DNA of 56,564 nt from an uncultured virus (IMG/VR IMGVR_UViG_3300032038_000023) (Duplodnaviria; Heunggongvirae; Uroviricota; Caudoviricetes), in the IMG/VR virus record IMGVR_UViG_3300032038_000023; one strand, given 5' to 3'. Position numbers and translations under genes: made by a program. Below, in pieces: positions 1 through 24,114 of the stretch (within the stretch, counting starts at the first letter, position 1; every line of letters starts with the position of its first letter). A model generated the notes under the pieces. It was not told where the DNA came from. It did not search any database and was given only the letters and a program-made list of their open reading frames with translations.

Positions 1-1
1 A

Positions 2-526
2 GCAGACGAAATGATAAAAACCTAGTTAGACGAGAACGGTAACGAACTGGAAGCTTATGGTTTCTTTAATAATGATGATTATAAAAAGATCCAGCCTAAA
101 GACGCACCGCAAATTCTCTACTCTTTAAAGGCTAATGGCCCCTTAAATTCAAAAATCCATGGTAATGCCTATGCTCGTATTAATAGTGGTATGGTTCGTT
201 TTTTGATTAGTGAGCAAGAAGCTCGCACTGATCTTCTGGCAACGAAGGTAGGCCAAAAGATGTCAACAGAAGAGCGCATAAAACGTCTAATGCCACATGA
301 ACTTACCACAAAACTATTCGAAGAAATGTCTAATTTGCGTCTCCGTAAAACGGGACTTGATATAGTCTTAGAGCAAATTAATCCGCGCTTTCCAAAAGAT
401 AAATATTCAGCATTTGCTTATGGTTTGTGGCGAATTAAAGAACTCGAAGAAGAAAACTATAAGAAAGTCGTTCGTAGAAATGGCGGCAAGGCGCGTTAGT
501 TAATTTTCTTTACTGGAGGACAATAA
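2..526 (+). CDS. Terminase large subunit, C-terminal part (5' truncated; TAG read-through)
   Basis: Frame 2 open from the window start to TAA 524-526 with TAG at 23 and 497. KDKYSAFAYGLW resembles the last motif of a terminase nuclease domain. Lies directly upstream of the portal. Confidence 0.75.
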
Positions 527-530
527 ATAA

Positions 531-2015
531 ATGGGAGAAGCTGTTGATTTAACTACTTTTAAGAAAGCCTTTGAAGGTATGATAGTTAAAAGCGAAAGCT
601 CTTGGAATGAATCTTTAGGTACTATTACTTTTAAGCGTAAGCTGAAAGATTTTAGTAAAGAAGAAGTAGAAAAAATCATTAATAGTGGTTCTGTAGAAGC
701 ACACCAATAGCTCTCTCGCAATTACTTTTATAAAGATAGTTTTTATAAGCGTATTTTAATTTACTATGCTACACTTTTGAAGTATATAGGTATATTGATC
801 CCCAATCCAAGTGCGGGCAATAAACTCTCCACCCCCTATGTATAGAAAAAGTATGAATAGGCGCTGGACTATCTTGATAAAATGAATATTCCAGAGTTAT
901 TGACTAGGTTTTCTTTACGTGCTCTCATTGATGGTTGTCATTATGGTGTACTCCAGAATGTTAATAAGACAGAATTTGCTGTTTTAGATTTGCCTGCTGA
1001 ATATTGTCGTTCCAATTATCGTGATTTTCATGGTAATGATGTGATAGAGTTTAATGTGCTTTATTTTAATACAATTCTTGATGAAGATGTACGAAAGTAG
1101 GTACTGAAAATCTATCCAAAAGTAATTGCAGATCATTATCGTAGATATAAGAAAGGTCAAGTAAAGTCATATTGGGTAAAGATTCCAACTGATATTGGTT
1201 TTTGTTTTTCCTTTACTGACGATGCGCGGCCTTTGTTCTTGGATTTAATTCCAGCTACGATTGATTATGATGAAGCAGTTGAAATTAATAAAGAACGCGA
1301 TTTAGAAGAGATCCGAAAAATTATAGTTCAGAAGATTCCTCATTTGACTGATGGCGCGCTTCTGTTTGAACCAAACGAAGCTGAAGTGATGCATGATGGC
1401 GCTGTCAATATGATGAAAGGGAACAAAAATATAAGTGTTTTAACTACATATGCTGATGTTGACTCTGTAGTGTCAAATACGGCTTCAGAAGCTTCTACAA
1501 ATGCGCTTGAGAAAAGTTTATAGAATGTGTATGCAAAGGGCGGCGTGAGTGGACAACTGTTTGCGCCGACTGGTAGCCAAGCACTTATGACGTCTATTAG
1601 AAATGATATTTCCTTGATGATGATTCTTGGGAATAAGTATTCGAGACTTTTTACTTTTATTATTAATAGTCTTTATGCAAATTCGAATGTGAATTTTAAG
1701 TATTAGTTAATGCCGATTTCGTATTATGATACGAGCGACTATATTACTGATTCCTTTAAGCTTGCATAGAGTGGTTATAGTTTCTTATTACCGAGTCTTG
1801 CGCTTGGTATTACTCAAAAAGATCTTATTAACCTTAAGAGTCTTGAGAATGATACATTAAAGATGTTAGAAGATGTACTTCTTCCATTATCTTCTGCCTA
1901 TACCTAGGGTTCGGGTACTGGTAAGGTTGGACGTCCGGAGTTAAGTCCGGAACAAAAGTCTATAAAGACAATCCAAAATGAACAATCATTAGACAATGGA
2001 GGCTCAAATGGATAA
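531..2015 (+). CDS. Portal protein, 494 aa with 8 in-frame TAG
   Basis: GGAGG RBS then ATG 531. Track ORFs 882 and 1233 share this frame, which has only TAG interruptions until TAA 2013-2015. C-terminal PLSSAYT(Q)GSGTGKVGRP. Position between terminase and protease. Confidence 0.8.
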
Positions 2016-3369
2016 ACACTTAACTGAATTTGACGTACAAGTGTACGGCGAATTAGAAAAGTATAATGAAGTTTTGAGCAAGGCTAGATGTCGAATTTTT
2101 TACAAGTATGAGAATCGAAATGGAACCTTTATTACTGATGAATTTGCGGAGAAGCTTTTAAGTTCTCTTCCGTACGCTCCAGTAAAAGGTATTTATGAAA
2201 CAGATGATTATACCGATCATGGCGCGCGACGTGACATGGGACGTATTTATGGCATAGTCCCAGAATCTCCCAATGTCACTTGGGAGCCATTTGTTGATGA
2301 TGATGGTGTAACTAGAACTTATGCTTGTACCGATGTTTTGATTTTTACTGCGCTTTATGAAGAAGCAAAGGAAATAGTTGGTAAGAGTCAATCAATGGAG
2401 TTATATGCTCCATCTCTGAAATACCATGAAGCTATTGTTCATGGTAGACGCTATGTTGTATTTGATGAAGGATGCTTTTTAGGGCTTCAAGTGTTAGGTG
2501 ACAATGTAGAGCCTTGTTTTGAAGGGGCTTCATTCTATACTTTATAGAGCACTATAGAATATGCTATTAATTAGATAAAAAACTACGGAGGTACTAAAAT
2601 GCCTAAGATTAATTTCAAGCTTTCTGACGATCAGAAATTCCAAGCTATTTGGGCGCTGCTCAATCCGGAATTTACTGAAGAAGGAAATTGGACTGTTACT
2701 TATGGTATTTCCGCCGTTTATGATGATTACGCACTCGTTATGAATTATGAGACTGGCGAGTTCAATCGTGCCTATTATAATAAGAATGACGAGAATGATA
2801 TGATCGAACTTGGTGACGTTGTGAAGTGCTTTGTTGTTGACGTTACTGAGAATGAGATGAATACGATCAATACTTTGCGCGCTCTCAACGGCGACACTTA
2901 TGAATTAGTGAGTGAAGAGCTGACTAATGCAAAGGAGAATTTTGAAAAAGTTTCCGAATTTTCCGCCAAAATTGAAGAGTTAACTAACTCGGTTTCTACT
3001 TTAGAAACAGAGAGAGATAATAGCGTTGAGCAGATCAATGAGTATACCGCTCAGATCGAGTCTGCTAACAATACAATCAATTCTTTAAATGAAGAGATCA
3101 ATTCTTTACGTGAGTTTAAACTCTCGGTTGAGACTCAGCAGAAGGAAGCTGTGATTAATGAGTATTCTGAACAGTTAAGCGAAGAGATTCTCAATGGTTA
3201 TCGTGAGAATTTTGATAACTATACTGCCGAGGAGCTTGATATGCGGTTGGCTTATGAGTTAAAGAAGAATAATCCTTCGATCTTCACCAAGACTGGTGAT
3301 GAGGGCATTGCCCCGAAAGACACCCAAGTTAATGGGTTAACTGCTATTTTATCGAAATATAAAAAGTAA
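2008..3369 (+). CDS. Prohead protease-scaffold fusion, 453 aa via TAG 2545 and 2572
   Basis: GGAGG at 1998 precedes ATG 2008. Track ORFs 1996 and 2599 are in one frame, separated only by two TAGs. Motifs NRNGTFIT, SQSMEL and VEPCFEGA are followed by an acidic coiled coil. Confidence 0.75.
2599..3369 (+). CDS. Scaffold protein from an internal in-frame start, 256 aa, TAG-free
   Basis: Own GGAGGT RBS at 2587-2592 before ATG 2599. Acidic coiled-coil sequence upstream of the capsid genes. Confidence 0.65.
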   Translation: MPKINFKLSDDQKFQAIWALLNPEFTEEGNWTVTYGISAVYDDYALVMNYETGEFNRAYYNKNDENDMIELGDVVKCFVVDVTENEMNTINTLRALNGDTYELVSEELTNAKENFEKVSEFSAKIEELTNSVSTLETERDNSVEQINEYTAQIESANNTINSLNEEINSLREFKLSVETQQKEAVINEYSEQLSEEILNGYRENFDNYTAEELDMRLAYELKKNNPSIFTKTGDEGIAPKDTQVNGLTAILSKYKK

Positions 3370-3386
3370 TTTAGGAGGCTATTTAA

Positions 3387-3944
3387 ATGGCTAGAATGGT
3401 TATTGATGGTTTCGGCCAAGTCGAGCTGAACAACGTAGCATTCCGTCGTGATGGCCGCATTGAGGCCCAGTGCGCTCTTGATACTGCTGCTTTTACTAGT
3501 GCTGTTCCTTGTGAGAACGGTATGATTCTTCGCGTTAAGAAAGCAGAGCACAAGATCACTTTCGCGGATGCTTCTGCTGCGAATCAGCTTTACGCGCTGA
3601 ACTATAGTACTGAACATATGTATGATGAGCGCAAGCCTGGTCTGAAGAACTTCAGCCTGTCTGGGCCGAAGGGTGCCGCCCGTCAGGATTTCCTTCCTCG
3701 CGTTGGTTATCTTGCTGCTGGCGACCTGTGGACGACCAACTGCGTTGATCTCGGTGACTATGCAAATGTTTCCGCTGTTGTTTCCGCTCTTGCTAGCGGC
3801 GACGTGTATGCGGCTGTTGGCACCGCTGGTGCTGTTGTTCTGGGTTCTGCGGCTCCTACTGTTGGTCCCGTGATCCAGGTTATTAAGAAGACGACTATGC
3901 CTGATGGGCAGGATGCTTTCCAGCTTCAGGTTCTGTCGGTGTAA
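3387..3944 (+). CDS. Probable capsid decoration/cement protein, 185 aa, TAG-free
   Basis: AGGAGG RBS, high-expression codon bias, lies between scaffold and major capsid. Confidence 0.6.
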   Translation: MARMVIDGFGQVELNNVAFRRDGRIEAQCALDTAAFTSAVPCENGMILRVKKAEHKITFADASAANQLYALNYSTEHMYDERKPGLKNFSLSGPKGAARQDFLPRVGYLAAGDLWTTNCVDLGDYANVSAVVSALASGDVYAAVGTAGAVVLGSAAPTVGPVIQVIKKTTMPDGQDAFQLQVLSV

Positions 3945-3960
3945 TTAGGAGGGTAACGAA

Positions 3961-4998
3961 ATGACTATTAATGAATTACGTGAACTTGCCCTTCATGCCG
4001 TTAAGGGTACTGCTCCTGCTGAGTTCACCGTCGAGAACGTTAATGACGCTTTCGCCGATGGTCTGAAGGAGTTTGCTGGTTCTTACAACCAGTTCATGAA
4101 GAATCGTTACGATCTCTATGATATTATCATTGAGTCTATCGACGAGATTCTTCCTCGTGATGTTGAAGCTGCGATCGGTCAGTTTGCTGAAGTTCGTACT
4201 GTGGGTCAGGGCCAGAAGGCTATGTTCCGTAAGAAACTCGGCCGCGCTCGCGCTAAGAAGTTCCTTACTCAGGTTGGTCTGAGTGGTGTTTATGAGACGT
4301 TCCGTCTGGATTCCGAGACCTTTGAACTCGGTGGGCATGCGGTCGGCGGCGGTGCTACGATCGATTTCGAGCGTATGCTTGACGGTGCCGAGTCTCTGGC
4401 TGAAGTTGTTGGTATTGTGACCGAAGGTCTTACCAATGCTGTGTATGTTGAAGTTGAGCGTGCTCTGGTTGCGGCCTATGACAATATGCCTGCTACCAAC
4501 AAGTACAAAGGCGCTTGGAATGCTGACGAAATGGTTAAGCTGATGACCATCGTGCGTGCCTATGGCAGCCCCGTGATTTTCGCTTGCCCTGAGTTCATCG
4601 CCAAGATGGGCGCTGACGCCATCATCCCCGTTGCCACTGGTACTGGTCAAGGCGTTTACAGCCCGAAGGACATTGAAGCTATCCATGATACTGGATTCAT
4701 CAAGGTCTTCCGTGGCGCTCCCGTTGTTGAGATTCCTCAGTCCTTTGTTGACGAGACCAATACCGAGACTTATGTTGATCCCAGCCGTGCCTACGTGTTC
4801 CCTGCTGGTGCTGAGAAGGTTGTCAAGGTTGTCCTTGAAGGTGCCACTCAGATCCGCGACCATGAGAATAAGGATAATTCCATGGAAGTCTATGCTTGGA
4901 AGAAGATGGGCTGCGCGATTCTGCATCACAACAACTGGTGCATTTATTGGAACTCTTCCATTGCAGATACTTCTGCGAAGGACATCTACGGGTTCTAA
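3961..4998 (+). CDS. Major capsid protein, 345 aa, TAG-free
   Basis: Size, position, AGGAGG RBS, strongly biased codons, followed by a hairpin. Confidence 0.8.
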   Translation: MTINELRELALHAVKGTAPAEFTVENVNDAFADGLKEFAGSYNQFMKNRYDLYDIIIESIDEILPRDVEAAIGQFAEVRTVGQGQKAMFRKKLGRARAKKFLTQVGLSGVYETFRLDSETFELGGHAVGGGATIDFERMLDGAESLAEVVGIVTEGLTNAVYVEVERALVAAYDNMPATNKYKGAWNADEMVKLMTIVRAYGSPVIFACPEFIAKMGADAIIPVATGTGQGVYSPKDIEAIHDTGFIKVFRGAPVVEIPQSFVDETNTETYVDPSRAYVFPAGAEKVVKVVLEGATQIRDHENKDNSMEVYAWKKMGCAILHHNNWCIYWNSSIADTSAKDIYGF

Positions 4999-5013
4999 TT
5001 TAAATAAGACTAA

Positions 5014-5037
5014 AGGGAAGGGAGTATTCCCTTCCCT
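5014..5037 (+). terminator. Hairpin after the major capsid gene
   Basis: AGGGAAGGGA-GTAT-TCCCTTCCCT perfect 10-bp stem followed by an AT-rich tract. Confidence 0.7.
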
Positions 5038-5089
5038 AATTTAATATATAAATATAGCGCACGAGCGCAAGGAGTTAAAGGAGAAAATT

Positions 5090-5566
5090 ATGTCAGACAA
5101 AGTTAAAGTTATTAGTGCATTTGATGGCCGTTGCGGAATTGATAATAGTGATTTACATATTTCTCGTAGATGGCCGGCACGCGGTTCGTATGTGACCTTA
5201 GATAAGGATATTATTGAAGAACTCATGTTCGATGATGCGTTTAAAAATATGGTCGAAGATGGGACGCTTTTCATTGAAGATTTTGAGTTGAAGAAGGAAT
5301 TAGGAATTGAGCCAGAAGATGCAAAAACGCCGACCGTGATTTATCTTGGGGATAAAGAGTTAGAGCGTTTCTGGAAAGTTATGCCGCTGGCGCAGTTCAA
5401 AGTTGAAGTAAAGAAATTAAAGAAGGCCCAAATTGAGTCATTAGCAGACTATGCTATGAATCATGGCGAAGATGGTAGTATTCCCAAGGCTAACTTCTTA
5501 ACGGAAGTGAGCGGCCGCAATATTCTTAAGGGGATTGAGTTAAAGAAAGCTGCCCAGGAGGGTTAA
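5090..5566 (+). CDS. Hypothetical head-module protein, 158 aa
   Basis: AAGGAG RBS, intact ORF after the capsid gene. Confidence 0.7.
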   Translation: MSDKVKVISAFDGRCGIDNSDLHISRRWPARGSYVTLDKDIIEELMFDDAFKNMVEDGTLFIEDFELKKELGIEPEDAKTPTVIYLGDKELERFWKVMPLAQFKVEVKKLKKAQIESLADYAMNHGEDGSIPKANFLTEVSGRNILKGIELKKAAQEG

Positions 5567-5569
5567 TGG

Positions 5570-6025
5570 ATGACTAATTTTCAGGTAGTGTATGACGCCT
5601 TTTTAGCCAAGTAGCTCGATGATGAATGGAATACTTGGGATGAAGAGGACATGCAAGAAGACTGGAAGTCCTTGCTAATGGGTGCGCTCCCTTGGTTTAA
5701 ATTTCCAAGAGTACCATTGGATATTGAGATTGATGAGACAGATGGAACTGAAAAGTTCGCCAGTGATTTAACTAACGAAGAAATTTAGATTTTAGCTACG
5801 TATATGAAATGCGAATGGCTTAATAGGACTATTCTTACTTGGGAGAATGTCAAACCGCTTTATGAAGAGCGCGATTTCTCGCAAGCAAATCTTTTGGATA
5901 AGTTTCATTAGATGCTTGAATAGGAGAAGAAAAATGCGGCTAGATTAGAAGCTGTATATTATCGCTCTATTAAGCGACGGCCATTTGATTATACGAAATT
6001 AGCTACACAAGTAAAAAATGTCTAA
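5570..6025 (+). CDS. Probable head-tail adaptor, 151 aa with 4 TAG (absent from the ORF track)
   Basis: GGAGG RBS. Reads MTNFQVVYDAFLAK(Q)LDDEW...FASDLTNEEI(Q)ILATYMKCEWL...DFSQANLL to TAA 6023-6025. Confidence 0.65.
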
Positions 6026-6272
6026 TGTACTTGAAGGTTATAATAATAACCTAAAGAATAGACTTTTTGCGCTCTTATGTGAATATGAACGAGGACGGGA
6101 ATGGGAGTCTTTCCTAGATTCTATTCTCGTTGAACTCATGTCATATCCGGAAGAACATAAGACTATTAATTATTATCGCCTTTTTACTAAGGTGTCTTCT
6201 CTTCGTTATTTAAGTTTTAAGTATTTTAGATCTACAGTTTTTGACTGTATGAGTTTACTGTCAAAGTTATGA
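6018..6272 (+). CDS. Hypothetical protein, 84 aa
   Basis: Intact ORF overlapping both neighbours; ATGA overlap at 6269-6272. Confidence 0.6.
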   Translation: MSNVLEGYNNNLKNRLFALLCEYERGREWESFLDSILVELMSYPEEHKTINYYRLFTKVSSLRYLSFKYFRSTVFDCMSLLSKL

Positions 6273-6991
6273 GTTACTATGATATTTATCGGTAGAGATT
6301 AAACCGATTTGGTAATGATTATCAATCTCGCGTCCAAGGTGAGAGAGAGCATTTATTTGATCTTTATTTATTAAAGTCGATTTATAGAGTTGACTTTATG
6401 TTTGAAGGCTGCCATCATGCGGGCAGTTTAGAAAAGTATAAATAGGATAATACGAAAACGCAATAGTATTTACTTACTAAGATAGATGTAGAGATCCCAA
6501 ATGGCACAATTCTTATGCTTATGGATAAGGATGGAAATGAAAAGCCATGGATGATCTTCTGGAAAGAAGAAATTAAAGCAAGTGGATATAATCGTTATAT
6601 TGTATTACGTATGACGCATGAATTAACATGGGTTGCACGCGATGGAACTACATAGACTGCTTGGGCGTATATGTATGGTCAAGAAGATAATATGTTGAAG
6701 AATGAAATTCGTTCGCGTTCGCGCATGGATACTATTTATGAAGAAAATATGAAATTAAGTTTCTTTGTAACACCAGCTAATCCAAAAATTAAGATTGATG
6801 ACTATTTTGTTGTTGGTGAAAAGCCGCTTTAGGAGTAGTATAGAGTTACTGGTTATGATATTCAATCTACACCTGGCGTGGAGTTTGTGAGTGTTGACCC
6901 TATTTATGAATTTGATCAAAGCGCGCCGCCAGATAAAGAAACTGGAGAGAATCCCGAAGACTTCTTCTGGTTTAATGGAGGGATTGAATAA
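6269..6991 (+). CDS. Probable head-closure/neck protein, 240 aa with TAG read-through
   Basis: ATG 6269 coupled to the upstream TGA. Reads MSYYDIYR(Q)RLNRFGNDYQSRVQGERE and stays open except for TAG to TAA 6989-6991. Confidence 0.6.
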
Positions 6992-7482
6992 TGGCCGCAA
7001 GAAACTTATCAGATTTAGGGTTAAATTTATAGAAGATTATGACGCGTTTAATGAGTGATCAGATACTTATTAAATTACTTTACTATACTGGAAAAGATCC
7101 ATATAGTGAAGAAGATTTAACCCCGGAACAAATTAAAAATGAGATTTATGAAAAGCACATAAAAGTTGTTCCAAGAATTGGTTCAATTGAGACGGCATAG
7201 AGTTTAGTTACTATACGTGTAGTACGTGGTAATTCAAATGATGGAAATGATGAGTTTAGAAATTTTTAGTTTGCGATTGAAGTTTTCGTGCCATTAACGC
7301 AATGGTATATTAAAGACTCTAATTTGCGGCCGTTCGCTATTATGGGTGAAATTCATAAATGCCTTAATAATAAAACTATTAGTGGACTTGGAAAAATGCG
7401 TGGTGGAGACTTTCAGATTAACTTCATGACTGATGAAATTGTTAGTTATGAAATGTTTTATTCTTTAACGACCTATGATTGA
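6991..7482 (+). CDS. Probable neck/tail-terminator protein, 163 aa with TAG read-through
   Basis: GGAGG RBS and TAATG overlap. Same frame as track ORF 7288-7482. Confidence 0.55.
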
Positions 7483-8221
7483 TCCTTATGCGTTTATTGC
7501 GCGGCCATTTGATTTTAAAGGGCTGTGTAAGATTTATCCACCAAAAATAAATGATATACTTGATGAACGAGATTATCCAGTATATAAAAAATTGTTTCTG
7601 AGTTCACAAGAAGATATAGAGGATGAATATGCTGAGTAGAAGCTTGGGATGGATGAAGTTCCTACTCCTCTTGGCTATTTATTTCTTATGGCCGCGGCAG
7701 ATTCGCGCATTAAACAAATCATAATGAATGGATTTGAGTTCTTTATTAAGGAACCAGTTCTTTTATTGATGGATTAGCAAATAATCGTTATAGGAGATAT
7801 AACTGAGACTTTAAAGAATATAAAATCTGTTGAAGAATTAAGATTAATTCGTGAAGATGATTATTTTGAATTTCAAAATGCTTTACGGCGCGCGATTGGT
7901 GAAAAAGAAGCCGAACCATATAATCCAAACGAAAACCCTAAAATCAAATATTTTAAAGCCAAAGCGAGGTTGCGTGATCGTGTAAAAGCAAAATCAAAGA
8001 ATGCATTGACTTTAGGTTCAACACTTTCTTCAATTTGCTGTATGGGTTTAGGTATAACCCCACTTAATATCGGAGAGTTAAGCTAGGCCGCAATATCGGT
8101 TCTAATGCGTACATATCAAGAGAAGCATAAATATGAAATTGATATTGAGTCGTTAATGAATGGAGCGGATAGCAAAAAAGTAAAACCGCAACCTTGGATT
8201 AGAAATATAGAAGATTTATAA
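7475..8221 (+). CDS. Tail-module protein, possibly tail assembly chaperone-like, 248 aa with 3 TAG
   Basis: Reads MIDPYAFIARPFDFKGLCKIYPPKI...GADSKKVKPQPWIRNIEDL to TAA 8219-8221. Function is inferred from context only. Confidence 0.55.
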
Positions 8222-8238
8222 CTAGGAGGTCATTTTAA

Positions 8239-9153
8239 ATGGCTAGTATTCTTGATCGCTATGGTATTAAAGAAGTCGCTGACGTGACTTTTTATAAGAT
8301 CAATCCCGATGGTACTCCTGGTGCTCCCGTTCTGTTTCTGGATACTTTAAAGGTTTCTACTATCGAGCAGACCGCTGAGACGGTTGACGCCCGTGGTGGT
8401 AAGGGTAACCCGAAGCTGATCACTTGGGACTACGGCAAGGAGATCACCATCAATATCGAAGATGCCCTCTTCAGCCCGAAGTCTATGGCTATCATGCTTG
8501 GCGACGGTACTGTTGCTCAGGGTACTGGTGGATACATCCGCAAGACTGCTGTTGCTCGTCTCGGCGCTGCTGCTGAAGGGGTTATCAAACTGGTTAATGA
8601 CTATGTTACTGCCGACGTGTATGATGCCACTGAAGGATCTAAGCGCGTGAAGCTGTATCTTGGTGCGAATGCGACCGCCCCTGCTGGTGAAGTGAAGCTT
8701 AATGGTCAGCTCGCTTTCTCTATCACTGGTGAGACTGCTAAGCTGTATGACGAAGATGGCACCGTTCTGGACGATGCGTTCTCTGAGTCCGACCTTAAGG
8801 CTCTTTATACGACTGGTCTGACTGTTCCTACTGGTAGGAATCTTGATGGTCATAAAGTTATGTTCACCTACTGGGTGAAGGCGACCACGAAGACGATCAC
8901 TGTTTCTGGTGATACCTTCCCTGGCACCTACTACATGCAGGGCGATACCTATTCTCGTTCTGACGTTGATGGCCGCGACCAGTTCTTCCAGTTCATAGTT
9001 CCTAAGGCTAAGCTCACTGCTGAGCAGACCATCACGCTCGAAGCGGAAGGCGATCCTTCTACCTTCAGCATGAATCTGACTGTTCTGCGTCCTGAGTCTG
9101 GCGAAATGATGAAGCTCGTGCAGTACGATCTTGAGGATCCTTCTGCGGGCTAA
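8239..9153 (+). CDS. Major tail tube protein, 304 aa, TAG-free
   Basis: AGGAGG RBS and high-expression codons. Motifs LDTLKVSTIEQTAETVDARGGKGNPKLITWD and IVPKAKL..EGDPSTFSM. Confidence 0.8.
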   Translation: MASILDRYGIKEVADVTFYKINPDGTPGAPVLFLDTLKVSTIEQTAETVDARGGKGNPKLITWDYGKEITINIEDALFSPKSMAIMLGDGTVAQGTGGYIRKTAVARLGAAAEGVIKLVNDYVTADVYDATEGSKRVKLYLGANATAPAGEVKLNGQLAFSITGETAKLYDEDGTVLDDAFSESDLKALYTTGLTVPTGRNLDGHKVMFTYWVKATTKTITVSGDTFPGTYYMQGDTYSRSDVDGRDQFFQFIVPKAKLTAEQTITLEAEGDPSTFSMNLTVLRPESGEMMKLVQYDLEDPSAG

Positions 9154-9170
9154 TCGGAATAATATAAAAG

Positions 9171-9203
9171 AAATGGCGGAGGATGGATTTCCTTCGCCAT
9201 TTT
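9171..9203 (+). terminator. Intrinsic terminator after the tail tube gene
   Basis: AAATGGCGGAGGA / TCCTTCGCCATTT stem with one G-U pair, then T-rich sequence. Confidence 0.7.
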
Positions 9204-9221
9204 GCTTTATAGGAGGAAGTT

Positions 9222-10016
9222 ATGGACGACAATCTTGGTTCTTTTAAAACATTAGAGTAGGTTCACTTAAAAGCTACTTAGAATATAGAAGTAGGTGGAC
9301 GAACTTTTGAACCTGGAGAGACTATTGCGTATTTTGATAAGATTTAGATTAGTAATTTAAATGAATTGAAAGAGTACGTGGCTGCGCGCGGAGGTTATGG
9401 AAATAGGGGTTTGGTCTATTGGGAAACTACGCGCGAACTAAGGTTTACCTTTACGCAAGGTGTATTTTCCAAGACACAGTTTGGAATTTTGAATAATGCG
9501 AAAGTTATAAATGTAGAAGAAGAAGAGCCACTTTTGATTACGAAAGTTGAAGAGTTAGAAGTGGATGAGTATGGTTAGTTTCATACTGCGGAAGAACCTT
9601 ATGATAGGTTATTTGTGTATTTAAAGGATAACGGATAGAAAATTTAGGTGCTTACAAAAGTTGGTACACTTTTAGAAGTGAGCGCGGAATACGCTTATTA
9701 GAGTGTTGTTGTGATGTATAGATATAATTATACGGGTGGCGGCACTGTTGCGAAGATAGGCTAGAGATGCCTACGTGGATTTTTGGAGTTAGAAGGTAAG
9801 ACGAGAGTAAAGGACGATACGTCTGGACTTATTACAACTGGGATCATTACGATTCCACAACTAAAATTAATGTCTGGCTTATCTATGAAATTAGGCGCGC
9901 AGGCGAATCCCGTGGTTGGAACTTTTGAAGGGGTAGGCGTGCCAGTAGGTTCGAGAAGTGAAAGTTATGTGGCAACTTTTAGTTTTCTGAATGATGATAT
10001 AGATAGTGATATGTAA
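9222..10016 (+). CDS. Tail-tube-like paralog, 264 aa with TAG read-through
   Basis: AGGAGG RBS. Track ORFs 9366 and 9783 are in this frame. ARGGYGNRGLVYWE and IITIPQLKL align by eye with ARGGKGNPKLITWD and FIVPKAKL of 8239-9153. Confidence 0.65.
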
Positions 10017-13000: not shown

Positions 13001-16000
13001 TCTCAGTACTTATAGACGAGTTTTGATGAAGTAAGTGGAGAATTAGTTTTAACACTTGATAGTGATGCTGTTACAGATGCGGCAACAAAAGCTGCTGAAG
13101 CAGCCACAGAAGCGGCAATAGGTGCTTATTTCTCTCATGCTGATGTTTCTTTAAAGGAAGCTGAAGTAACTCTCAAAGAACTGAATGCAGCTAAAGCTTC
13201 TGCGGAAGTTCTTGCAAATATGAATAATCCTGATTATAGTATGAACTCTGAATTTTATGGTGGTTCTGCTGCGATTAATTAGGATTATGTAAAAGAACAT
13301 GGATCAGAAGCTAATATAGCAAAATTAAATGCTGAATGGATTGCGGCAACCTAGGCCGCGTAGAAACAAGCTCAACTTGCATATGCAAGAATGATTGAAC
13401 TTGCGGATTCCGATAGCATACTTAAATTAGATGAAAAGGTTGGGTAGGGTACTTCTTAGGCTTTAGCAGAAGTATTAGGTAAAGTCTTTGTTGAAACTGG
13501 TGAATCTTTATCTCAAGCTGTTGTAGAGTAGCTTAAAAACGGTCTTTCTGAAGGGACTTTAGATTCTCATGTATTAACTGCTACTGTAGCAGATGCTTTA
13601 GAGTTTTCTTTAAGCGGTATAGATTTAGATACTGAAGAAGGATTCGAAGAATATCTGAATCAGATGGATGTTAGCGCTGAAGAGTTAGAAGAATTTGCTA
13701 GTATCCTTAATGTTGGGGAAGATGTTTTACGTAAATATATTAAATCCCAAGCAAAGGCTATCAAAGAAGTTCAAACTGGTCAACGAGCAAAAATATATGA
13801 GTAGGCTTTTTAGAATGGTATTGATATTACTAAAAAGCTTCAAGACTCTGTATAGGCGCTTAATTCTGAGCAATTAGATGCAGTAAATAATTTACTTACT
13901 AGCTCAGAAGGGTTATTTGGTGAAGATAATAAAGGATTTAGTAGATTATTTAATGATCTGCCAAATCTTATTCAGAATCAAGAAGTTGATGGTCTTTTCC
14001 ATTTATTTAATTCCATTAATTTAGATAATCCTATTTAGGCTTTTCATAAGTTAAATGAGATTTCTAAAACTGCAACTGGTTCTCTTAAAGAATATGCAGA
14101 TTTAATTTTAGAATTAAATACTGAAAGCTTTTCAAGAAGTAATATGATCAAGTCATTTATGATGACTGAAGAATATACTGAAGACCTTAATAAAGAAATT
14201 GAAAAGTTTATTGATGAGAATGGAAAAATTACTCCGAAGAATGTTGAAGAATTAGCTGATAGTTCCGATACATTACGCACTATACTTGATGATAATATTG
14301 CTAGTGCAGAAGGCTTAGCCGATGCCATTAATGCCATTAATGATGGTGCGCCACTTGAAGGTTTAACTGACGAGTTATTATTCGCGTTTGATGCAGTTGC
14401 TGATGTTGATGATATGATTTTGCAATTGCATGACACAATTGCTAATTTTGACGCTGGATTAGATTATAGTGAAGGTACCGAGTTTATTGTTGATTTAGGT
14501 GATTAGTTATCTGAGTTATTAGAAAACTTTGAAATTGGTAATCAATAGACTCAACGAATGTATGATTAGCTCTTTGGCGAAGGAGCATATGAAACATAGT
14601 GGAATTAGTTTAAGGCCGCGATAGAGAGTGGCTAGGCAACAGTTGAAGACTTTGTTAATGACACAATGGCCCGTGTTACACGTGTTCAAGAATGGGCGCG
14701 TGAAGAATCCTATAATTTTATGTAGGAAATGGCTCAGCGTGGCGAATTAGGAATTACATTTGATGGTACTTCAGAAAATGGTGACTAGTTCAAGTGGGAC
14801 GTTGGGGATTTAACAACTGAGCAATTAGTAGCAGAAGTCCGTAAAGCAGCTAAGCGTGCTGGAGAAGAAATTTCTGATACAACTGCTATGGCACTTATTG
14901 AAGGTGCTATGGCGCATATGCCAGACTTACGTGCTGAATTAAAAGAAAATGACTTCTCAGCGAGTGTTGAAGAGTTAATTAAATAGCACGTTAAAAATGC
15001 AAAAGATATTTCCTAGTCTGAGATGGAAGCACTTGCTAAATCTGCTGGGAAAGATGTTGAAGAAGTTAGATAGGCTATTGTTGAGGCTGCGAAGAAAAAT
15101 CCAGAAGTTAATTTTGATATAAAACCTGTAGTTGATTGGACATATGGAGACGGCTCTCCAATGACTCCAGAAGATGTCATTAACAAATTTGTTGAGACAT
15201 TTGGTGAATTGGATGTTGCTTTAGATATGCACGTCCATGGTGGAGAAATTGATTACGAAGGTCTTTATAATGATTTAGTTGAGCGTGGTTTAACTCCAGA
15301 CCAAGCAAATGCAGTAGCAGATAAATTAGTTACCCAAATTGATAATGGACTTTTAACGAAGAAAATTACCATTCCAAATATTGAAATTGATGATAATGGT
15401 AATATTATAAATAAGCCACAAGAAATACCAGTTTATGCAAATAGTGTTGAAGGACTTGAAGCAACTGCAAAAGCTGCATTAGAAGCAGCAGAAGAAAAAG
15501 CCAATTATACAATTATGTCTCAGCAATTAGCTGAGCAAGATTATAGTGGCTTACAAGATAGCATATTTACATATATGAAATATGCAGCTGATGAGTTTGG
15601 TGAATACTTACAAGGCGTTATTGATGGCAAATTAAAACCTGGCTCTGAACAAGGTGGAGAGAAAGATAGCGGTAATGTAAAAGTTGGTTATAATTATAAC
15701 TCTTCAGCTTATGCAGATGGCATACCTTTAGGCAAGCAAACTGTTGCAGTAGAAACTAAATTAGATGAAGTTTCTTCCTCTAAATTACAAGAATGGGTAA
15801 ATCAAGTTGGTAAAATAACTCTTACTTTTACTAATGAAGAAGAAGCAAAAGCAAAAGCAGAATAGATTAAGAATGATATTGAAAGTGATAACCTTAATCT
15901 AAAGATTAGTACTGACTTAATTGAAAACCCAGACGAAACTTATTCTATTGAAGTTTAGCCAGCAGGATTTATTGAAGGTATAACTCATCAAGCCCAAGAA

Positions 16001-18373
16001 TATGCAACAGATCCGTTAGAAATTCCAGCTGTTGCAGAGATAGTCGATGTTAAATAGCCAGAAGAAACCGGTGAAGTTGAAGTTGAAGGTGGAATAACTG
16101 AGTTTAATACGGATCAAGCAGATCAAAAGATTGCAGAGTCCGCAAATGCTGCTGAATAGACTATTGCTGAACAAACTGAAGCCGGTTACACAACTGGCGC
16201 GCAACAAGGTGCAGATGCTTCAGAAGTTTATCGTCAACAAGTAGCAGATGATCTATATGAAAAGATCTTAAATGGTGAAATCACTTCTGGTGAGTAGGGT
16301 GCCGCTTATATTTCTCGTTAGGTTGATGATTAGGCAAGTGCTCTTGCGATTGGTGACATAATTTATGCAAAATTATCCTCCGCAGGTAATAGTGCTGCCA
16401 TTGATATGGCTGGCTAGATTCAAACTGCACTTAGTAATATCGTCTTTAAGATTAATGTTGTTGCTGAAGTTTAGGGTCAAGGCAATGTTGCTGGCAATCA
16501 GGTTGCTTTCCATGGTGGCGTAATTGGTAGCGGTAGTTCTGCTGCAAAAGGTGGTATTGTTTCTCGCGCTAGTGGAAGTGCTTCACGTCAATTAAAACCT
16601 GGTATTGCACTTACTGGTGAAGAAGCACCAGAAATTGTTTGGAATAAAGAGCGTGGTTATGCTTATATAACTGGTCAAAATGGGCCAGAATTTTAGCAGT
16701 TAAACCCTGGAGATAGGGTATTTAATGCTCAAGAAACAGATCGCATACTTAGAAATAGTTCTGATATAGTTGAATTCTTCGGTTCATATGCCACTGGTGC
16801 TTGGAACCGTACTAAGATTCAAGAGCGCGCCGCTTAGCGAAACAAAAGCTCTCGTTCTGGTAGTAGTGGGAGTAAAGATTCTAGCGATAAAGAGAAAACT
16901 CCAACCGTATGGGAAAATGAACTTGATTGGCTTTATAATCTCATTCAAGATATTGGGATGCTTGAGCGTCTCCAAACCAAACTTGCCGAACGTCATGATC
17001 GTTATTTAAGCGACATTTCCAAAACTGGACGTGACTTATATAACACATCTAAAGAACAACTCGATAATCTCAAGACCCAACGTGATAATGCGCGCGAGCG
17101 TCTGAACCGACGCACGCAAGAGATGAACGAGTAGATCGGTATTAGTGGATATGGAAACTACGTCTGGTGGAATGCAAAAGATCAAACCTTAGAGATTGAC
17201 TGGGATGCGATCGAAGCGCTTCAAGATAAAGAGACCTATGATGAAATTGTTGAACTCATAGGCCGCACGGAAAAGATTCAAGATGAGATTCAAGCCGCGC
17301 AAGATACTCTTTGGTCTACTGAAAAAGAGATCAAAGATATTGAAGATCGATACTTAACTGATTTTACTAATTACCAATCTCGTGTCTATGATGCAGTTGT
17401 ATACGGCTATCAACAACAAATTGATAAGCTTTCTTCTTTAAATGACGAATTAAATGATGCTAATAATGCAATACTTAATTCTCTTTAGAAAGAAATTGAT
17501 TATTCTCGTCAAATCCGTGATAATACCGATACTCAAAACCAACTTGCTGACATGGAAGCGCGGCTGGCTTATATGCGCCGCGATACGACTGGAGCAAACG
17601 CTTCTGAAATCCGTCAGTTAGAAAAACAATTAGCTGATTCTCGTCAAAGCTATGAAGATACTTTAATTGATTAGTCTCTTAATTCTTTAAAGGAAGCTAA
17701 TGACTAGGCCGCTGAATAGAGAGAACGTCAAATCAATTTAATGACAGCGTAGTTAGACTACTGGAAAGAATCTGGTGCTTTATGGAATGAAGTTAATTAG
17801 TTGATTGCAAGTGGCATTGGAAACAATGGAAGCTTAATAAGTGGTTCTGATCTTGAAAAAACACTTTAGAACGCTGAAAGTTGGAAGGGCATGAGCCAAG
17901 AACAGCGTGAAGTCTGGGCAAACGATTTGATTCTTGAAACGAATAAAGCTGGTGCTTATTTGATAAAGATAAGCGAAGGTTTGGATGGAATTTCAAAGGG
18001 AGTCTGGGCTAATCTACCGCGGTCGTCTGTAACGAGCCAAAAGCTCGATTATGGTGATGAAGGTTATTCGACTGGTGGGTTAAATGCTCATCCCGGACTT
18101 GCAATGCTTCATGGTACGCCGAATGAACCAGAATACGTATTAAATGCACGCTAGACCGACGCATTCTTGCGGCTGTCTGATGTACTGCCCGCGATGTTGA
18201 GTAATGATACTGGAACGATGAATAATTTTGGTGGGAATACATTTAATCTTGTGATGAATGTCGATCAAATTGCTAATGATTATGATGTCGATCGTCTGGT
18301 TGAGCGCGTCAAACAAGATATTTACGATGTAAGCTCATATAGAAATGTAAATAGTATAGGTTTCATTAGATAA
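10070..18373 (+). CDS. Tail tape measure protein, about 2767 aa with many TAG
   Basis: GAGGTG RBS. Track ORFs 11153, 12170, 14144, 15161, 17891 and 18167 all share one frame ending at TAA 18371-18373. TMP core DLDKAMTETAVVT...ETAGTALKTVVARF, Gly/Ala hydrophobic segment, GEEAPE and HGTPNEPEYVL motifs. Not every codon was checked by hand. Confidence 0.85.
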
Positions 18374-18394
18374 CTTTACTTTAGTATAGGAATT

Positions 18395-18420
18395 AGAAGG
18401 GGACTCTAAGTCCCCTTCTT
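18395..18420 (+). terminator. Hairpin after the tape measure gene
   Basis: AGAAGGGGACT-CTA-AGTCCCCTTCT perfect 11-bp stem. Confidence 0.65.
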
Positions 18421-18436
18421 AAAAGGAGGAATAAAC

Positions 18437-19234
18437 GTGAGTGTTTATGAAGGAGAATTTCTGGGCTTCACATTAGGTGAAATCCATTCTTCTAATTTAA
18501 ATATAACTCGTGTTACAAGTGGAGATCGGTATAGTGAAAATATGACGCCGAACTTTACTGATGTAACAGCATCTATTCCTGGGAATGATGGGATGTATTA
18601 CTGGACAACCTATCATAACTAGAGGAATTTTACGATAGACTTCGCGTTTGATGATTTACGAGAGGAAGACTTAAGACGTTTAAAGTAGTATTTAAGTTTT
18701 AAAGGACTTTAGTAGTTAATTTTTGATGAAGCACCATATAAGAAGTATTATGTGAAGTGCTAGAATCCGCCTGTACTAAAGTATATTCCTTTTGGTGGAT
18801 TAGAAGGCATGATGGTCTATAAAGGCGAAGGTAGTGTCACTTTTGTGGCATATAATCCATATGCAGTTAGTACTGAGTCGGTTGAGTTTGTTGCGACGAA
18901 TAAGGTTTAGCTGGATAATTCGGGTGACTTGGATACGTATTTTAAGGTTTATTTCCCGGTTGTAAGTAAGATCGGATTAAATCTTACGTCCGGCGGAAAA
19001 ACTATTGGGTAGTTGACTATTAGTGGATTGACTCGTTAGGGTACTGATTCGTATATTTGCATTGATATGAAAACTCATTTAATTGAAGGAATGAATGCAT
19101 CGTTTGAGAAGACTGGGAACTTATATAATAGATTTATTTTGTCTGGTGATTTCTTTTCAGTTCCAATAGGATAGAATGTGTTAACTGCTAATACGAATTG
19201 GACGAAATTGACTATGAGTTAGATGTATTATTAA
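18437..19234 (+). CDS. Distal tail protein (Dit-like), 265 aa with TAG read-through
   Basis: AGGAGG RBS and GTG start. Motifs IPGNDGMYY and LIFDEAPYKKYYVK. Canonical position after the tape measure; TAA 19232-19234. Confidence 0.7.
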
Positions 19235-19245
19235 GAGGTACTGCG

Positions 19246-22200
19246 ATGGTAGATAAGTATGAAATAAGCTTATGGGAAGACTATCCAGATACTACCTCTA
19301 GTGGTGTTCCTTTTTTAAACGAGCGTAAATTATGCGTAATTGGCTCTGATACGATGAATACATAGATTCGTGCGGTCGAGCCAAAAATGATAGAGAATAT
19401 AAATGGTACACATACTTTTACGTTTAAGATGTATTATGTGTATCGTAATGAAGAAACTGGCGAGATGATACCAAATCCTTTTGGTAGTTTATTGATTAAT
19501 GAACGAAAGGTAAAGGTTCTTTGGAAAGGAAATTGGTATGATCTTCTTATAAAGTAGTTAGATGAAGATACGGCGAGTAAGAGTATTACTTATACGTGTA
19601 AAGATACATTTATTACTGAATTAAGTAAGAATGGGTATAACTTAGAGTTTAGTTCTGAATTATAGAATAATATTGGTACTTCAAAAGAACTGGCGGCCGC
19701 CGTATTAAAAGATAGCGGTTGGTAGTTTGATAGCGCTGGATCATATACTTCGATTTAGAAAACTGAAGAAGCAGTTTATGAGACGAGCGCGCAGAATGCA
19801 TTTACAGCAACAAAGTAGTCTCCGAGTGGAGATACAACTGCAACGATTCCTAAAGGCGCAAATGTGCTAGTATTTTATTCGTCTATAATTGATATTAATT
19901 CAGCTACAAGAATTACGAAGTAGGTCTAGTTTCTTTATGCGGCCGGTGGGTATCAGACAGAAGATAATGGAATGTTGGTACTTAACGGCGATTGCTATGC
20001 TGTATCGCTTACTGGATATAAAACCGGTGATAATGTAATATTATCAAGTGGAAATACAACTGTTTTAACTATTAATGTTGCTAATGCAGTATCTGGTAGG
20101 TATCGCGCGGAAAGGCTTGTAAAGAGTTAGATTACTAAGTATGACGCGTTGTTTGATAGATTTGTAAATGTATATTCTGATACATAGAGTAGCGGCGCTG
20201 AGACTTGGGGGTATGAGACAACTGAGTATAGTGACCCATTGACGGTTGTTAATTTAGCCGCCAACTCCTCTAACTTTAGTAACTTAGATGGATGGATCGG
20301 CACGAATTTAAGTTGGGGTATTTATCCTAAGTTTACTTCGAGTACAGATATTAGTAGCTATACTGCGAAGAGTTATTTACGTATTGGCGCGGCCGGGTCA
20401 TACTACAATAATGGTATCTCGGCAAATCAGCAATATTTAAAGCCCAGTCAGAATGATATAAAGAAAGGTATAACTGGTGGTTTCCATATTGGAGATCGTT
20501 ATATCTTTAGAGTAAAGATTAAAAATGGTAATGATCCTTCAAGTGGAAGTTATTTATATAATACGACTGTTACACCATAGGTTAGAGAATATAGCGCTGC
20601 CCATGGCCCAACTGGGAACTAGTTCTTCTCGGTAGGCAGCCGCACCACGAATGGATAGTGGAATGAGTATGTACTTACTTGTAATAGGTCGCTTGCTGCG
20701 GATTAGATAGAGAAAGCTGGGTTATTCTTAGTTGCTACTGCGGCTTGCTGGGTTGAAGATGTTGAGTTCTTTAAGGAAGAGTTTGGTGTAACAACTTATG
20801 GGTCTACTACGACTTAGAGAATGAACCCTGGTGAGATCTCTCTTTAGGGAATCGCGTAGACAGTATATCGGTATTATCGACCAGATCATAGTGGTGCAAC
20901 GACTCCAGAAGGAGTTACTTTCCTTTATGAAGGCACGAGTCCTTCGAGTAGGTTCACCGCGCGCACGAATAATTATGAGAAGCTGGCAACAATTGAAGCA
21001 AAGTAGTCAAATAGATTTAATATTCTTTAGTCGATTGCAGAAGCTTTTGAGTGCTGGGTTAGATTTATAATTAACCATGATGAAAATGGTAGGGTTCTTT
21101 ATGATACTCAAGGTAATCCACAGAAGTATGTGCGGCTTGTAGAGTATGTTGGTGAAGACCTTGGTTGGAGTTTTGAGTATGGAATTGATCTTAAGACTCT
21201 AAAGAGAAAGATTGTTTCTGATTAGATTACAACTAAGGTTATTGTATTACCAAATGATAATGAGTTTGCGCCAAATGGATTCTGTACGATTGCAAGAAGT
21301 AGTTTAAACTATACAAGAGAAAATTTTGTATTGAATTTGGATTACTTTATTAATCAAGGATTACTGGATTAGAGAACTGTTGATAAAGATTTATATAGTA
21401 CATCTAATAACTATATTGGATATTATTATAATCTTCATATGCTTAATAAAGAGTATGATGAGATTACTGATTTATTAGTATAGAAGAGAAATGAACTGAG
21501 TGCGCAGTAGAGTGAGCTAACGGTTCAGTAGAATAAGTTAAAGGCACTGAATAATTAGTTGACTAGTACAAGATCTGATGTTATTACTTTGGCATGTACA
21601 TAGTCTGAAACTAACCCGTGGTCAGCGGCCTAGGCATATGCACGCGCACACACAGATAATGTAAAGGTTCAATCTTTATTAAATACAGCTGGAAGCCTTC
21701 AGAATTAGATTAGTAAGACGACTTCTGAAGTTAACCAATTAGTATCGTCTGTTACGATGATTACTAATTATATTAATGATAGAGTTAGTAGACAGAATAC
21801 AATTCGTACTCAAGTTGAAGCACTTCATGCTAAGTTCTTTAAGAAATATTCAAGATATTTACAAGAAGGGACTTGGCAAGATGAAAGCTATATTGATGAT
21901 AATAAGTATTATCTTGATGCAGTTGATGTTGCTTATACTTCGAGCAGGCCACAATTATAGTATGAAATAAATGTAATGCGGCTGACCGCGATAGAAGATT
22001 TTAGTTCAAAAAAGTTCTAGGTTGGCGATCTTTGTTATATTGCTGATAGAGAGTATTTCGGATATGGTGTTGATGGTATCACGCCTTATAAGTTACGAAT
22101 TGTAATTAGTGAGATTACTTCTTTCTTTGATGAACCGCAAAAGGATGTTATAAAGGTTTAGAACTATAAGACTTAGTTTGATGATCTTTTTTAGAGAATT

Positions 22201-24114
22201 ACAGCCACAACTTAGAGTCTTTAGTATCAATAGGGCGGCTTTTAGAAGGCGGCTGAGGCAATTTAGCCGGATAAGACCTTAACATTTGATCTACTTTAGG
22301 AGACGTTTGATAAGAATAAGGATATTATTCTTAATACGGCAAATCAGTAGGTCACATGGGATGGCACTGGAATTACAGTTGGTGATAGTGCTAACTCGGC
22401 AAATAAATTACGCATCATGTCCGGCGGTCTGTTCATATCGAATGATGGTGGCCTTACTTGGAAGAATGCGATTCGTGGTGATGGAATTAGCGCGGATGTG
22501 CTGACAGCAGGCCGCATAAATACGAGTTAGATATTTGTATATGATGGTAATCATCCTACCTTTAGATGGGATAGTCAAGGAATCAACGCATATTATGTAA
22601 CTGGAACTACGCCAAACTTTGGTAAGTTTGTTAGATTTGATTAGTTTGGTGTCTATGGTTATAATGGCACGAATGACTTTAAACCATCTACTGAAGATGC
22701 GATTTGGGCGACCAATTCTGGTGTTAAGTTTGGACTTACTTGGAGGGGATTCTTTTTAAGAGGTTCAAGTGGTAATTCAAGTTTAGAGATCTCAGATAAT
22801 GGTAGTGGAATTGTATTCTTGATGAAGAATGCGATTGGGAATAACTCGCTTGAGATTTCTACTTCGAATGATATTGTGCTGAAGACTGGAACGGTTAATC
22901 GAGTTTAGATTGGTAGATTGACTCCTTCGAATCCGAATACAGAATATGGTATTTGGGTTAGAGATGCAAGTGGAAATAATATATTTAATGTTAGTTCTAG
23001 TGGAACGAACTCAATCGGTGGTTGGACGTTAACGAGAAATTCGTTTTATCACACAGTTTCTGGTACTGGCACGATTGGTTTCTATTCAGAAGGTACTTCG
23101 GCTACTATACAAGGTGTTACTAAGAGTTTCTACATTTTAGCTGGTAGTAGTTTTGGTGTTACTGCCAATGGAGAAGTATATGCTAGCGCTGGTAAGATTG
23201 GTGGGTGGACGATTAATTCTGACACACTTACTGGTGGAAATGTTACTATTAATTCAAATGGTAATATTAGCTGTACAACTAATGGCTCTTTAAAATGGGC
23301 ATTATATAATAATGGTGATGCTACATTTCACAATATAACTGCTGATGGCGGAACAATTGCTGGTTGGCATATTACTCAAGATGAAATTTCTAACCAAAAT
23401 GGTACGGCACTTTAGAGTTCAAGCTATAGCGTAAATAGATACACAATTACTACTAATAGTATTAATGCTTCTGGTGGTTCGATTGGTGGTTGTACACTAA
23501 GTTCTGGTGGACTTAGTGGTACTGGTTGGTCACTTGGTGGTAGCGGTGGCTCTGTCGGTGGATGGAGTATTAGTAGTGGTTCATTGTCAAGTGGTGGTAT
23601 TACATTAAATTCTAGCGGTTCAATTACTATTGGCGGCTCATCCTTAGTGGCAGGTAGTAAAAGTGATATTACTATTAATAGCAACTTAACAGTTTCTAAC
23701 TGGTGTGCTATTGGTGGTACTTTAGATGTAGCAGACTAGATACGTACACTTGAAGATGTTAAAATCAATGGAAGCGTACTTGACTCAGATGATGTCGATT
23801 ATCTTCATTGGTTAAGCAATAACTGGGGCTACACAAGCCCTGAATCGGTGCGGAGGGCGGGAATTGCAAGCGTGTACGTTGAAAGCTGTAGTGGATTTGA
23901 TGATGGCTCATACAATAAACGGACTGGTAGAACTTAGTTATCATTTACAATTAATCTCGAAGGTGAATTAGCAGATGGTACTGAAGTTGCTGGTCGTTCA
24001 TAGGATGTTACATATTATGTTCCTACAAGCGATGCTTATGATACTGGTGTATCAGATGGTGAATCACATTTTACATATGTCGGTGACAAAAAAGGTGATT
24101 ATACACGCAATTAA
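19246..24114 (+). CDS. Tail tip/central fibre (Tal-like) protein, about 1622 aa with many TAG
   Basis: GAGG RBS. Track ORFs 20239, 21757 and 22918 share the frame ending at TAA 24112-24114. N-terminal ENINGTHTFTF, a coiled coil, and C-terminal Gly/Ser-rich IGGWxI repeats. Confidence 0.75.

Follow-up and report, generated by a model that had tools for sequence, protein, structure and literature searches.

Recoding of the amber codon TAG as glutamine (Gln; code 15) is known from several groups of phages. In Lak and crAss-like phages, TAG is read as Gln with a bias towards late genes (PMC6784885, PMC8346664, PMC7886860, PMC9523058), and for crAss-like phages Gln at TAG has been proven by proteomics (PMC9523058). 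phAss-1 (Babkin et al. 2023, PMC10607447; GenBank OQ749652) uses TAG as Gln in its structural genes and has CUA-anticodon tRNAs and no synthetase. The Agate clade comprises large gut phages with mixed codes among near kin; according to Borges et al. (bioRxiv 10.1101/2021.08.26.457843), just 40% of the TAG-recoded genomes overall yielded a suppressor tRNA. Here we analyze a 56,564-nucleotide stretch from an uncultured virus (IMG/VR IMGVR_UViG_3300032038_000023; GC 37.9%), referred to as the window, for which an earlier note had proposed that TAG is reassigned to Gln across the morphogenesis module. The code-15 recoding is confirmed and is of the kind known from phAss-1 and Borges et al. New beyond it are a conserved exclusion of TAG from certain genes and two leads from relatives, namely hidden split suppressor tRNAs and a candidate helper protein.

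Open reading frames (ORFs) of at least 100 amino acids covered 32.8% of positions 1-24114 under the standard code (code 11) and 98.2% with TAG read as sense. Reading TGA or TAA as sense gave 37.8% and 82.5%, respectively. Past position 24114, the cover was 80.1% under code 11 and 89.9% with TAG as sense. A simple caller yielded 56 code-15 genes (two probably on the wrong strand), which end in TAA (36) or TGA (20). Positions 11-24114 are tiled by 16 of these genes with gaps of -8 to 91 nt, each having a purine-rich Shine-Dalgarno (SD) sequence or a start/stop overlap. TAG occurs in 11 of the 16 (170 codons in total, 77 of them in the tape measure and 47 in the tail-tip gene Tal) and is absent from five. 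PHROG and Pfam matches span the TAG codons in the portal, tape measure, distal tail (Dit) and tail-tip genes. Thus, as the earlier note had claimed, the plus-strand genes that appeared broken become single, closely packed ORFs led by ribosome binding sites. The gain in coding density is clear. Regarding its statement that no gene needs TAG as a stop, 1 of the 21 TAG-bearing genes of at least 80 amino acids is a borderline case, namely 49765-50040, whose first TAG is within the last 12 codons; read through, this gene ends in a TGA overlapping the next ATG. Note that 49765-50309 holds two small tandem paralogs with one TAG each. The claimed extent of the recoding has to be redrawn: the capsid, cement, major tail and internal-start scaffold genes are TAG-free, and the recoding reaches beyond 24114 into RuvC, a methylase and the block 53274-56527. 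Annotation under code 11 would lose most virion genes.

We collected 80 IMG/VR loci using the capsid protein as query. In-frame TAG was present in matched genes of 33 loci and absent from 47. In-frame TGA was found neither in these 80 loci nor in 37 terminase matches, a sample limited to the neighbourhood of the window. Under code 11 the genes look broken, as would those of a decayed prophage or a sequence full of errors. The probability of this explanation is practically nil, and we consider it refuted: the interruptions are exclusively TAG, with no TGA, TAA or frameshift, and the same pattern recurs in the 33 related loci, with a single in-frame TAA overall.

To identify the residue encoded, the TAG columns of the window were compared with 47 standard-code units from the IMG/VR loci. 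At least three units aligned at 140 of 203 TAG columns, where the commonest residue was Gln (38), followed by Lys (21), Asn (18) and Glu (13). Gln occupied 19 of the 31 conserved TAG columns. The other 12, with Lys, Tyr, Asp or Asn in some, would suit a code in which TAG specifies a different residue (Glu, Lys or pyrrolysine) or is ambiguous, as would the label 'Pyl' that ARAGORN gives to the CUA tRNAs of relatives. Such a code is exceedingly improbable. Genuine Gln columns are similarly spread (35 of 50 listed conserved columns are Gln), and the residue profile at TAG columns correlated with that at the window's CAA/CAG columns at r=0.95, compared with at most 0.36 for any other residue (Lys 0.36, Glu 0.30). 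Moreover, the 'Pyl' label derives from the anticodon alone, and the acceptor stem of two suppressors equals that of a relative's tRNA-Gln(UUG). The coding gain and the aligned residues establish, on comparative grounds, that TAG encodes Gln. The five motifs by which the earlier note had illustrated this, four of which fall outside 1-24114, proved of unequal value. In RuvC (LARL*GV), Gln is present in 7 of 7 cases, and the methylase motif (HKT*K) aligns to HPTQK of DpnA. The portal motif (AYT*GS) is a weak example, with Glu in 20, Gln in 14 and Ser in 2 relatives, and no standard-code homolog aligned at LY*YDYGQ or YW*LLA.

TAG is unevenly distributed among the genes of the window. Four genes of high-copy type (cement-like, capsid, the gene at 5090 and major tail) use TAG for none of their 27 Gln codons, whereas the remaining 16 late genes do so for 188 of 399 (p=1.4e-7, Fisher test). 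In the 33 minus-strand genes, 15 of 309 Gln codons are TAG, 10 of these in RuvC. We next calculated family shares (TAG among Gln codons) over the window and ten recoded relatives. Shares were low for capsid (4/142, the four TAG being confined to a single genome), cement (1/91), Pol III (2/368) and GyrA (0/223), and high for portal (76/222), tape measure (438/1106) and Tal (288/591). RuvC, which sits in an otherwise TAG-poor replication arm, had the highest share (58/94). A recount in 32 loci found by portal, which removes the bias of the capsid search, included 20 recoded loci; TAG was present in 20/20 portal, 1/15 capsid and 3/9 major tail genes. In phAss-1, the protease-scaffold, cement, capsid, next gene and tail protein together have 0 TAG in 67 Gln codons. 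A capsid gene without TAG is also described for one crAss-like genome with no detectable suppressor (bioRxiv 10.64898/2026.08.21.746148).

The putative protease-scaffold gene contains an internal SD and ATG at 2599, and GGAGG-ATG stands at the aligned position in 11 of 11 homologs. Both of its TAG codons precede this start, so that a nested C-terminal scaffold-like product (2599-3369) would be TAG-free. TAG lies solely upstream of the internal start in 8 of 11 cases. Within the tape measure gene, 15280-15860 (~190 codons) has many CAA/CAG and zero TAG; this stretch may have been acquired recently from a phage with the standard code. The gene of no named function beside Pol III (33817-34923) lacks TAG in the window and has 30% TAG over its family, indicating that recoding status varies among relatives.

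A rough neutral TAG share was estimated from each gene's own T:C and A:G ratios. It amounted to 0.44-0.71, as against 0.21-0.51 in structural late genes. Because the late-gene shares are at or below neutral, the signal is exclusion of TAG from early and high-copy genes, not enrichment elsewhere. Enrichment of TAG in late genes is therefore not supported; the bias towards late genes and the scarcity in replication genes stand, with RuvC and the high-copy virion genes as exceptions. The strong signal argues for selection against TAG in early and high-copy genes, conserved across relatives.

In the model of Borges et al., TAG codons would instead be positively selected timers that delay late or lytic proteins until the code switch. 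RuvC, a nuclease in the early arm, is at or above the neutral estimate (0.53 or 0.33), the methylase has a lone TAG before its SAM-binding motif, and Dit in the window uses TAG for 10 of 10 Gln, all of which would suit timers. In contrast, the structural late genes do not exceed neutral, the most abundant virion proteins are ungated, and the CHAP endolysin family of recoded relatives is TAG-poor (14/87), as are two small neighbouring genes (2/30 and 2/22). Selected timers are thus a possibility of some weight, although not the probable one. They are compatible with selection against TAG in early and high-copy genes, as drifted TAGs would gate expression as a side effect. The cost of TAG, reflected in its exclusion from these genes, would account for the greater part of the distribution; for true gating, RuvC is the strongest candidate.

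Complete relatives are 112-128 kb long. A quick LG+G4 tree with 34 rows, built from portal, capsid and two neighbouring genes, showed recoded phages at three separate spots among standard-code sisters, plus phAss-1. A single clade for the 15 recoded rows was rejected (p-AU 0.026) in a test on 32 rows that excluded the two distant ones. On the capsid-only tree three changes were required, but a single origin was still admissible. Recoding is therefore likely to have arisen repeatedly, and at least three recoded lineages amid standard-code sisters constitute a natural experiment. Among the matches listed, cultured relatives (22-34% identity) infect Enterococcus, Lactococcus, Bacillus, Brevibacillus, Alicyclobacillus, Clostridioides and Staphylococcus; three genome-bin matches are to Faecalibacillus, Erysipelothrix and a Bacteroidaceae bin. 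The earlier note had named a standard-code Bacillota host. The standard code is supported indirectly by the low use of TAG on the minus strand and by the 20 TGA ends; Bacillota, judged from relatives, is plausible and unproven.

Taken together, we consider the following model highly probable. The window would be about half of a roughly 118-kb long-tailed phage of gut or rumen type with a standard-code Bacillota host. After infection, the phage would make its own CUA-anticodon tRNA, encoded in the other half of its genome. Host enzymes would charge this tRNA with Gln, and the charged tRNA would compete with host release factor 1 (RF1) at UAG. Selection would keep TAG out of replication genes, which are needed before the suppressor exists, and out of genes whose products run to hundreds of copies (capsid, cement, scaffold, major tail), and low-copy late genes would let CAG drift to TAG.

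The decoding machinery was analyzed mainly in the relatives. Of the 10 recoded relatives, 8 carry a CUA tRNA, among them the 4 complete genomes and the nearest relative that has that region; ARAGORN called such tRNAs in 6 of the 10 genomes, one call being flagged as a possible pseudogene. No credible CUA tRNA was found in 7 tiled standard-code genomes (one implausible ARAGORN call) or in 11 further tRNA regions of standard-code relatives. In a search of 30 related records for release factor, synthetase, amidotransferase and ligase families, PF00472 (release factor), PF00749 (tRNA-synt_1c), PF02934 (GatB) and PF01139 (RtcB) each gave 0/30. Thus, of the genes that the earlier note had suggested scanning for, the CUA tRNA exists in relatives, and the charging enzymes and release factor were not found in the 30 records. 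No protein family was present in all complete recoded and zero standard genomes (4 versus 7 genomes, E<1e-8, 40% cover). The absence of a release factor, GlnRS/GluRS and GatB would also fit a host that itself reads TAG as Gln, in which case no switch would be needed. This is very unlikely: early genes almost wholly avoid TAG, recoded relatives bring their own CUA tRNA, and among the close relatives 47 of 80 loci follow the standard code.

Several suppressors share their acceptor stem with the phages' own tRNA-Gln(UUG), and their weak 1:72 pairs and G73 presumably fit Gln identity. Two of the CUA tRNAs, L100:19240-19327 and L354:44446-44533 (phAss-1; L numbers denote loci outside the window), are 88 nt long, with a variable arm that forms a second hairpin with a CUG (Gln) anticodon-like loop. 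The CUA tRNAs at L130:11381-11455, L365 near 2245 and L419 near 10597 have a non-canonical G-rich T-loop and were scored low or missed by ARAGORN.

A number of observations weigh against the model of phage suppressor and TAG exclusion. No tRNA was found in the window, which appears to belong to a contig of 118.6 kb, and two recoded relatives (82% and 46% complete) yielded no CUA tRNA. For the 77-TAG gene, 94% readthrough per codon would give 1% full-length product and 97% would give 10%. Such efficiencies exceed those of usual simple amber suppression, and 94-99% readthrough against RF1 is a difficulty for the model. The phAss-1 portal is likewise TAG-poor (1/34), the capsid gene of one relative contains 4 TAG, and three relatives have TAG within the scaffold part. 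The cement, scaffold and major-tail labels are leads. Finally, the four-fold-site version of the neutral estimate gave 0.32-0.69; the neutral model is crude and the genomes are related.

Two complete recoded genomes without an ARAGORN call have a split suppressor at the syntenic site; the insert measures 75 or 49 nt and comprises an acceptor stem and a T-arm of its own, with CCA at its end. In all five loci with split amber tRNA genes, the insert falls between the second and third anticodon base. Default ARAGORN called none of the five unspliced and 4 of 5 once the insert was removed. The spliced G002 form stayed uncalled. Its assignment draws on how it folds and on L365, where the corresponding site holds an unsplit tRNA with the same unusual kind of T-loop. 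Two of the five adjoin an intact CUA tRNA and hence are not the sole suppressor there. For the two complete genomes, suppressors hidden from scanners answer the question of the missing suppressor.

Nested inserts of this kind also interrupt other tRNA genes, in recoded and standard-code relatives alike. Across 39 tRNA-bearing tiles (721 kb), 12 genomes, both recoded and standard, yielded 19 distinct inserts with a CCA end, compared with 0 for the control tail ACC and 5 for CAC, all shifted registers of one element. A stricter scan (97 tiles and the window) gave 8, versus 0, 0 and 0 for controls. The inserts in relatives measure 49-122 nt; the window has none. In one element with six copies (5 distinct rows), both partners vary at three pairs, each of which lies within the insert, a weak test with related sequences. 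When nested tRNAs were sought by structure alone, without ARAGORN, the outcome was not specific (50 hits for CCA versus 21-54 for control tails), and Rfam had no match for the inserts. Sequencing data over a relative's tRNA region consisted of contigs alone and showed no joint at the insert, which is uninformative as to splicing. The inserts may be released by RNase P together with 3' processing and the tRNA halves then ligated. A DRB0094-like RNA ligase (L110:9863-11077) gives strong hits in 7 of the 10 recoded records and in 1 of the 20 standard ones; as a required splicing enzyme it was rejected, as nine standard genomes with nested tRNAs are without a strong hit. In Lak phage, a tRNA-Thr(TGT) has a tRNA-shaped intron (Devoto et al. 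2019, Fig. 4). It is alike in being a phage tRNA insert that possibly itself encodes a tRNA; in contrast, the inserts described here are many, CCA-ended and in five cases interrupt an amber suppressor. A literature search on split suppressors, nested tRNAs, capsid TAG avoidance and an RF1 inhibitor, covering few subscription papers, found just the precedents cited.

The second lead is an unnamed 111-aa protein. In 6 of the 10 recoded records, which together represent all three recoded lineages, its gene lies 0.4-3.6 kb away from the CUA tRNA. None of the 20 standard close relatives has it (a single marginal hit contains a stop). It has a weak Rv2632c-like match (E=1.4e-4, below the cut-off), no name in PHROG, and only 'hypothetical' among 120 homologs listed. 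Among 80 homolog loci, 40 have a CUA tRNA within 6 kb, a number that rises to 42 under relaxed search settings; after clustering at 70% identity, this applies to 21 of 30 clusters. As a matched control, we used 62 loci centred on a neighbouring DUF2828 gene, leaving out 19 with fewer than three tRNAs; a CUA tRNA was present in 13/16 with the 111-aa protein versus 5/27 without it. A terminase match was obtained in 37 of the 50 carrier records searched, and in 28 of these the terminase contains TAG. Against a helper role, 9 of the 37 carriers are standard-code, and one complete recoded genome is without the protein. By these counts, which kinship inflates, the protein is enriched in recoded phages and not exclusive to them, and it may be just a tRNA-array gene or an anti-defence protein. 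As a speculative and rather unlikely extension, the code switch could be a cassette of the suppressor, in some members freed from its anticodon insert, and the adjacent 111-aa protein. The insert would be cut out by RNase P and 3'-end processing and the halves joined by an RNA ligase, and the protein would raise UAG readthrough, for example by hindering RF1. If true, the cassette would explain both the missing suppressors in recoded genomes and 94-99% readthrough of the 77-TAG gene, and the protein would be a testable candidate for overcoming host RF1 without a phage release factor. Directly upstream of several suppressors lies a 75-aa gene (L111 near 5160-5387, with homologs). It was rejected as helper, as it occurs in standard-code relatives too; it is without the Cys-rich motif present in its homologs from those relatives.

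The features of the window and of the relatives are listed in Table 1. The terminase label is suggested by position and Walker motifs (PF03237 did not match the terminases searched), the protease/scaffold label by position and a coiled coil, and the major-tail label by position and codon bias. The capsid model (pLDDT 74.7) matched phage capsids and encapsulins in Foldseek (E about 1e-9 to 1e-7), and as modelled the protein has the HK97 fold. PDB sequence searches with the capsid, tail, cement and 111-aa proteins gave nothing significant, and a promoter scan only chance level. Accessory genes at 27097-31072 encode a CAP-domain protein, a xanthine/uracil permease, a nucleoside deoxyribosyltransferase and a family 8 glycosyltransferase; the permease is common to many phage-sized contigs.

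Table 1. Features of the window and of related loci (TAG given as codons, or as codons per total Gln codons)
Feature	Position	Strand	TAG	Matches and remarks
Terminase large subunit, C-terminal part (putative)	11..526	+	2	phrog_24618; matches C-terminus of 601-aa gene upstream of portal in a relative
Portal	531..2015	+	8/18	phrog_2739 E=9e-50
Putative protease-scaffold	2008..3369	+	2	phrog_3313 (nameless)
Probable capsid cement/decoration	3387..3944	+	0/8	PF22758 Phage_cement on 12-18% of atlas members
Major capsid, HK97 fold (modelled), 345 aa	3961..4998	+	0/8	
Protein of no named function	5090..5566	+	0/3	after capsid terminator
Five genes, head-completion/tail-chaperone position	5570..8221	+	16 in four genes	function from gene order
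Probable major tail protein	8239..9153	+	0/8	phrog_2729 virion structural protein E=2e-55
Major tail paralog	9222..10016	+	8/12	phrog_2729 E=3e-11
Tape measure, 2767 aa	10070..18373	+	77/190	PF10145 and PHROG tape-measure families
Distal tail protein Dit	18437..19234	+	10/10	phrog_33, PF05709
Tail-tip (Tal-like), 1622 aa	19246..24114	+	47/72	phrog_6211, PF06605 (below cut-off)
RuvC-like Holliday junction resolvase	24980..25708	-	10/13	PF02075, phrog_827
Replication and nucleotide-metabolism arm	25709..52585	-	nearly TAG-free	dUTPase, NrdD/G, Pol III alpha, RecJ, primase, DnaB, Sak4, gyrase A/B
N6/N4 DNA methylase	38990..39628	-	1	PF01555; TAG at Gln of HPTQK
Second recoded late block, BppU-like baseplate and fibre genes	53274..56527	+	18 in four genes	PF10651, PHROG tail fibre families
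Split amber (CUA) tRNA genes	L094:2825-2974, L210:7346-7469, L418 near 945, L421 near 6761, L453 near 3254			insert 49-77 nt, CCA end
Same insert kind in Ile, Leu, Asn, Gln, Lys tRNA genes	L093:7854-8001, L110:17296-17431, L145:10877-11034 and 15943-16082, L164:1535-4399, L211-L217			several loop positions
Unnamed 111-aa Rv2632c-like protein	L111:6735-7070; homologs L356-L438			by CUA tRNA

The findings touch on three questions about recoded phages, namely the missing suppressors in recoded genomes, how RF1 is beaten without a phage release factor, and whether recoded codons act as timers. The phage is long-tailed, related to phAss-1 and Enterococcus phage EF1, and not crAss- or Lak-like. With phAss-1 it shares a long tape measure, Pol III alpha, mixed-code relatives, EF1 kinship and a TAG-free capsid gene. 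It has 35% (capsid) and 27.5% (portal) amino-acid identity with phAss-1 and forms a separate branch; it falls outside the >80% nucleotide identity and synteny with phAss-1 that define the proposed genus Phassvirus. As far as the phAss-1 group account was consulted, it mentions neither split suppressors nor TAG exclusion from high-copy genes. Compared with Lak and crAss-like phages, which as described have another virion type and Bacteroidota hosts (Lak genomes also encode RF2), the window has a tape measure, Dit and Tal, and its listed relatives are Bacillota phages. The window is closest to the phAss-1 group. Judged by description, it also resembles Agate, to which it may belong: both have large genomes, several recoded structural blocks (two late blocks in the window), a standard-code replication arm and mixed codes. 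In contrast to Agate as described, the window family has no TGA-recoded relative among the 80 capsid loci and 37 terminase matches, no RF2 in 30 records and an endolysin that is not TAG-enriched.

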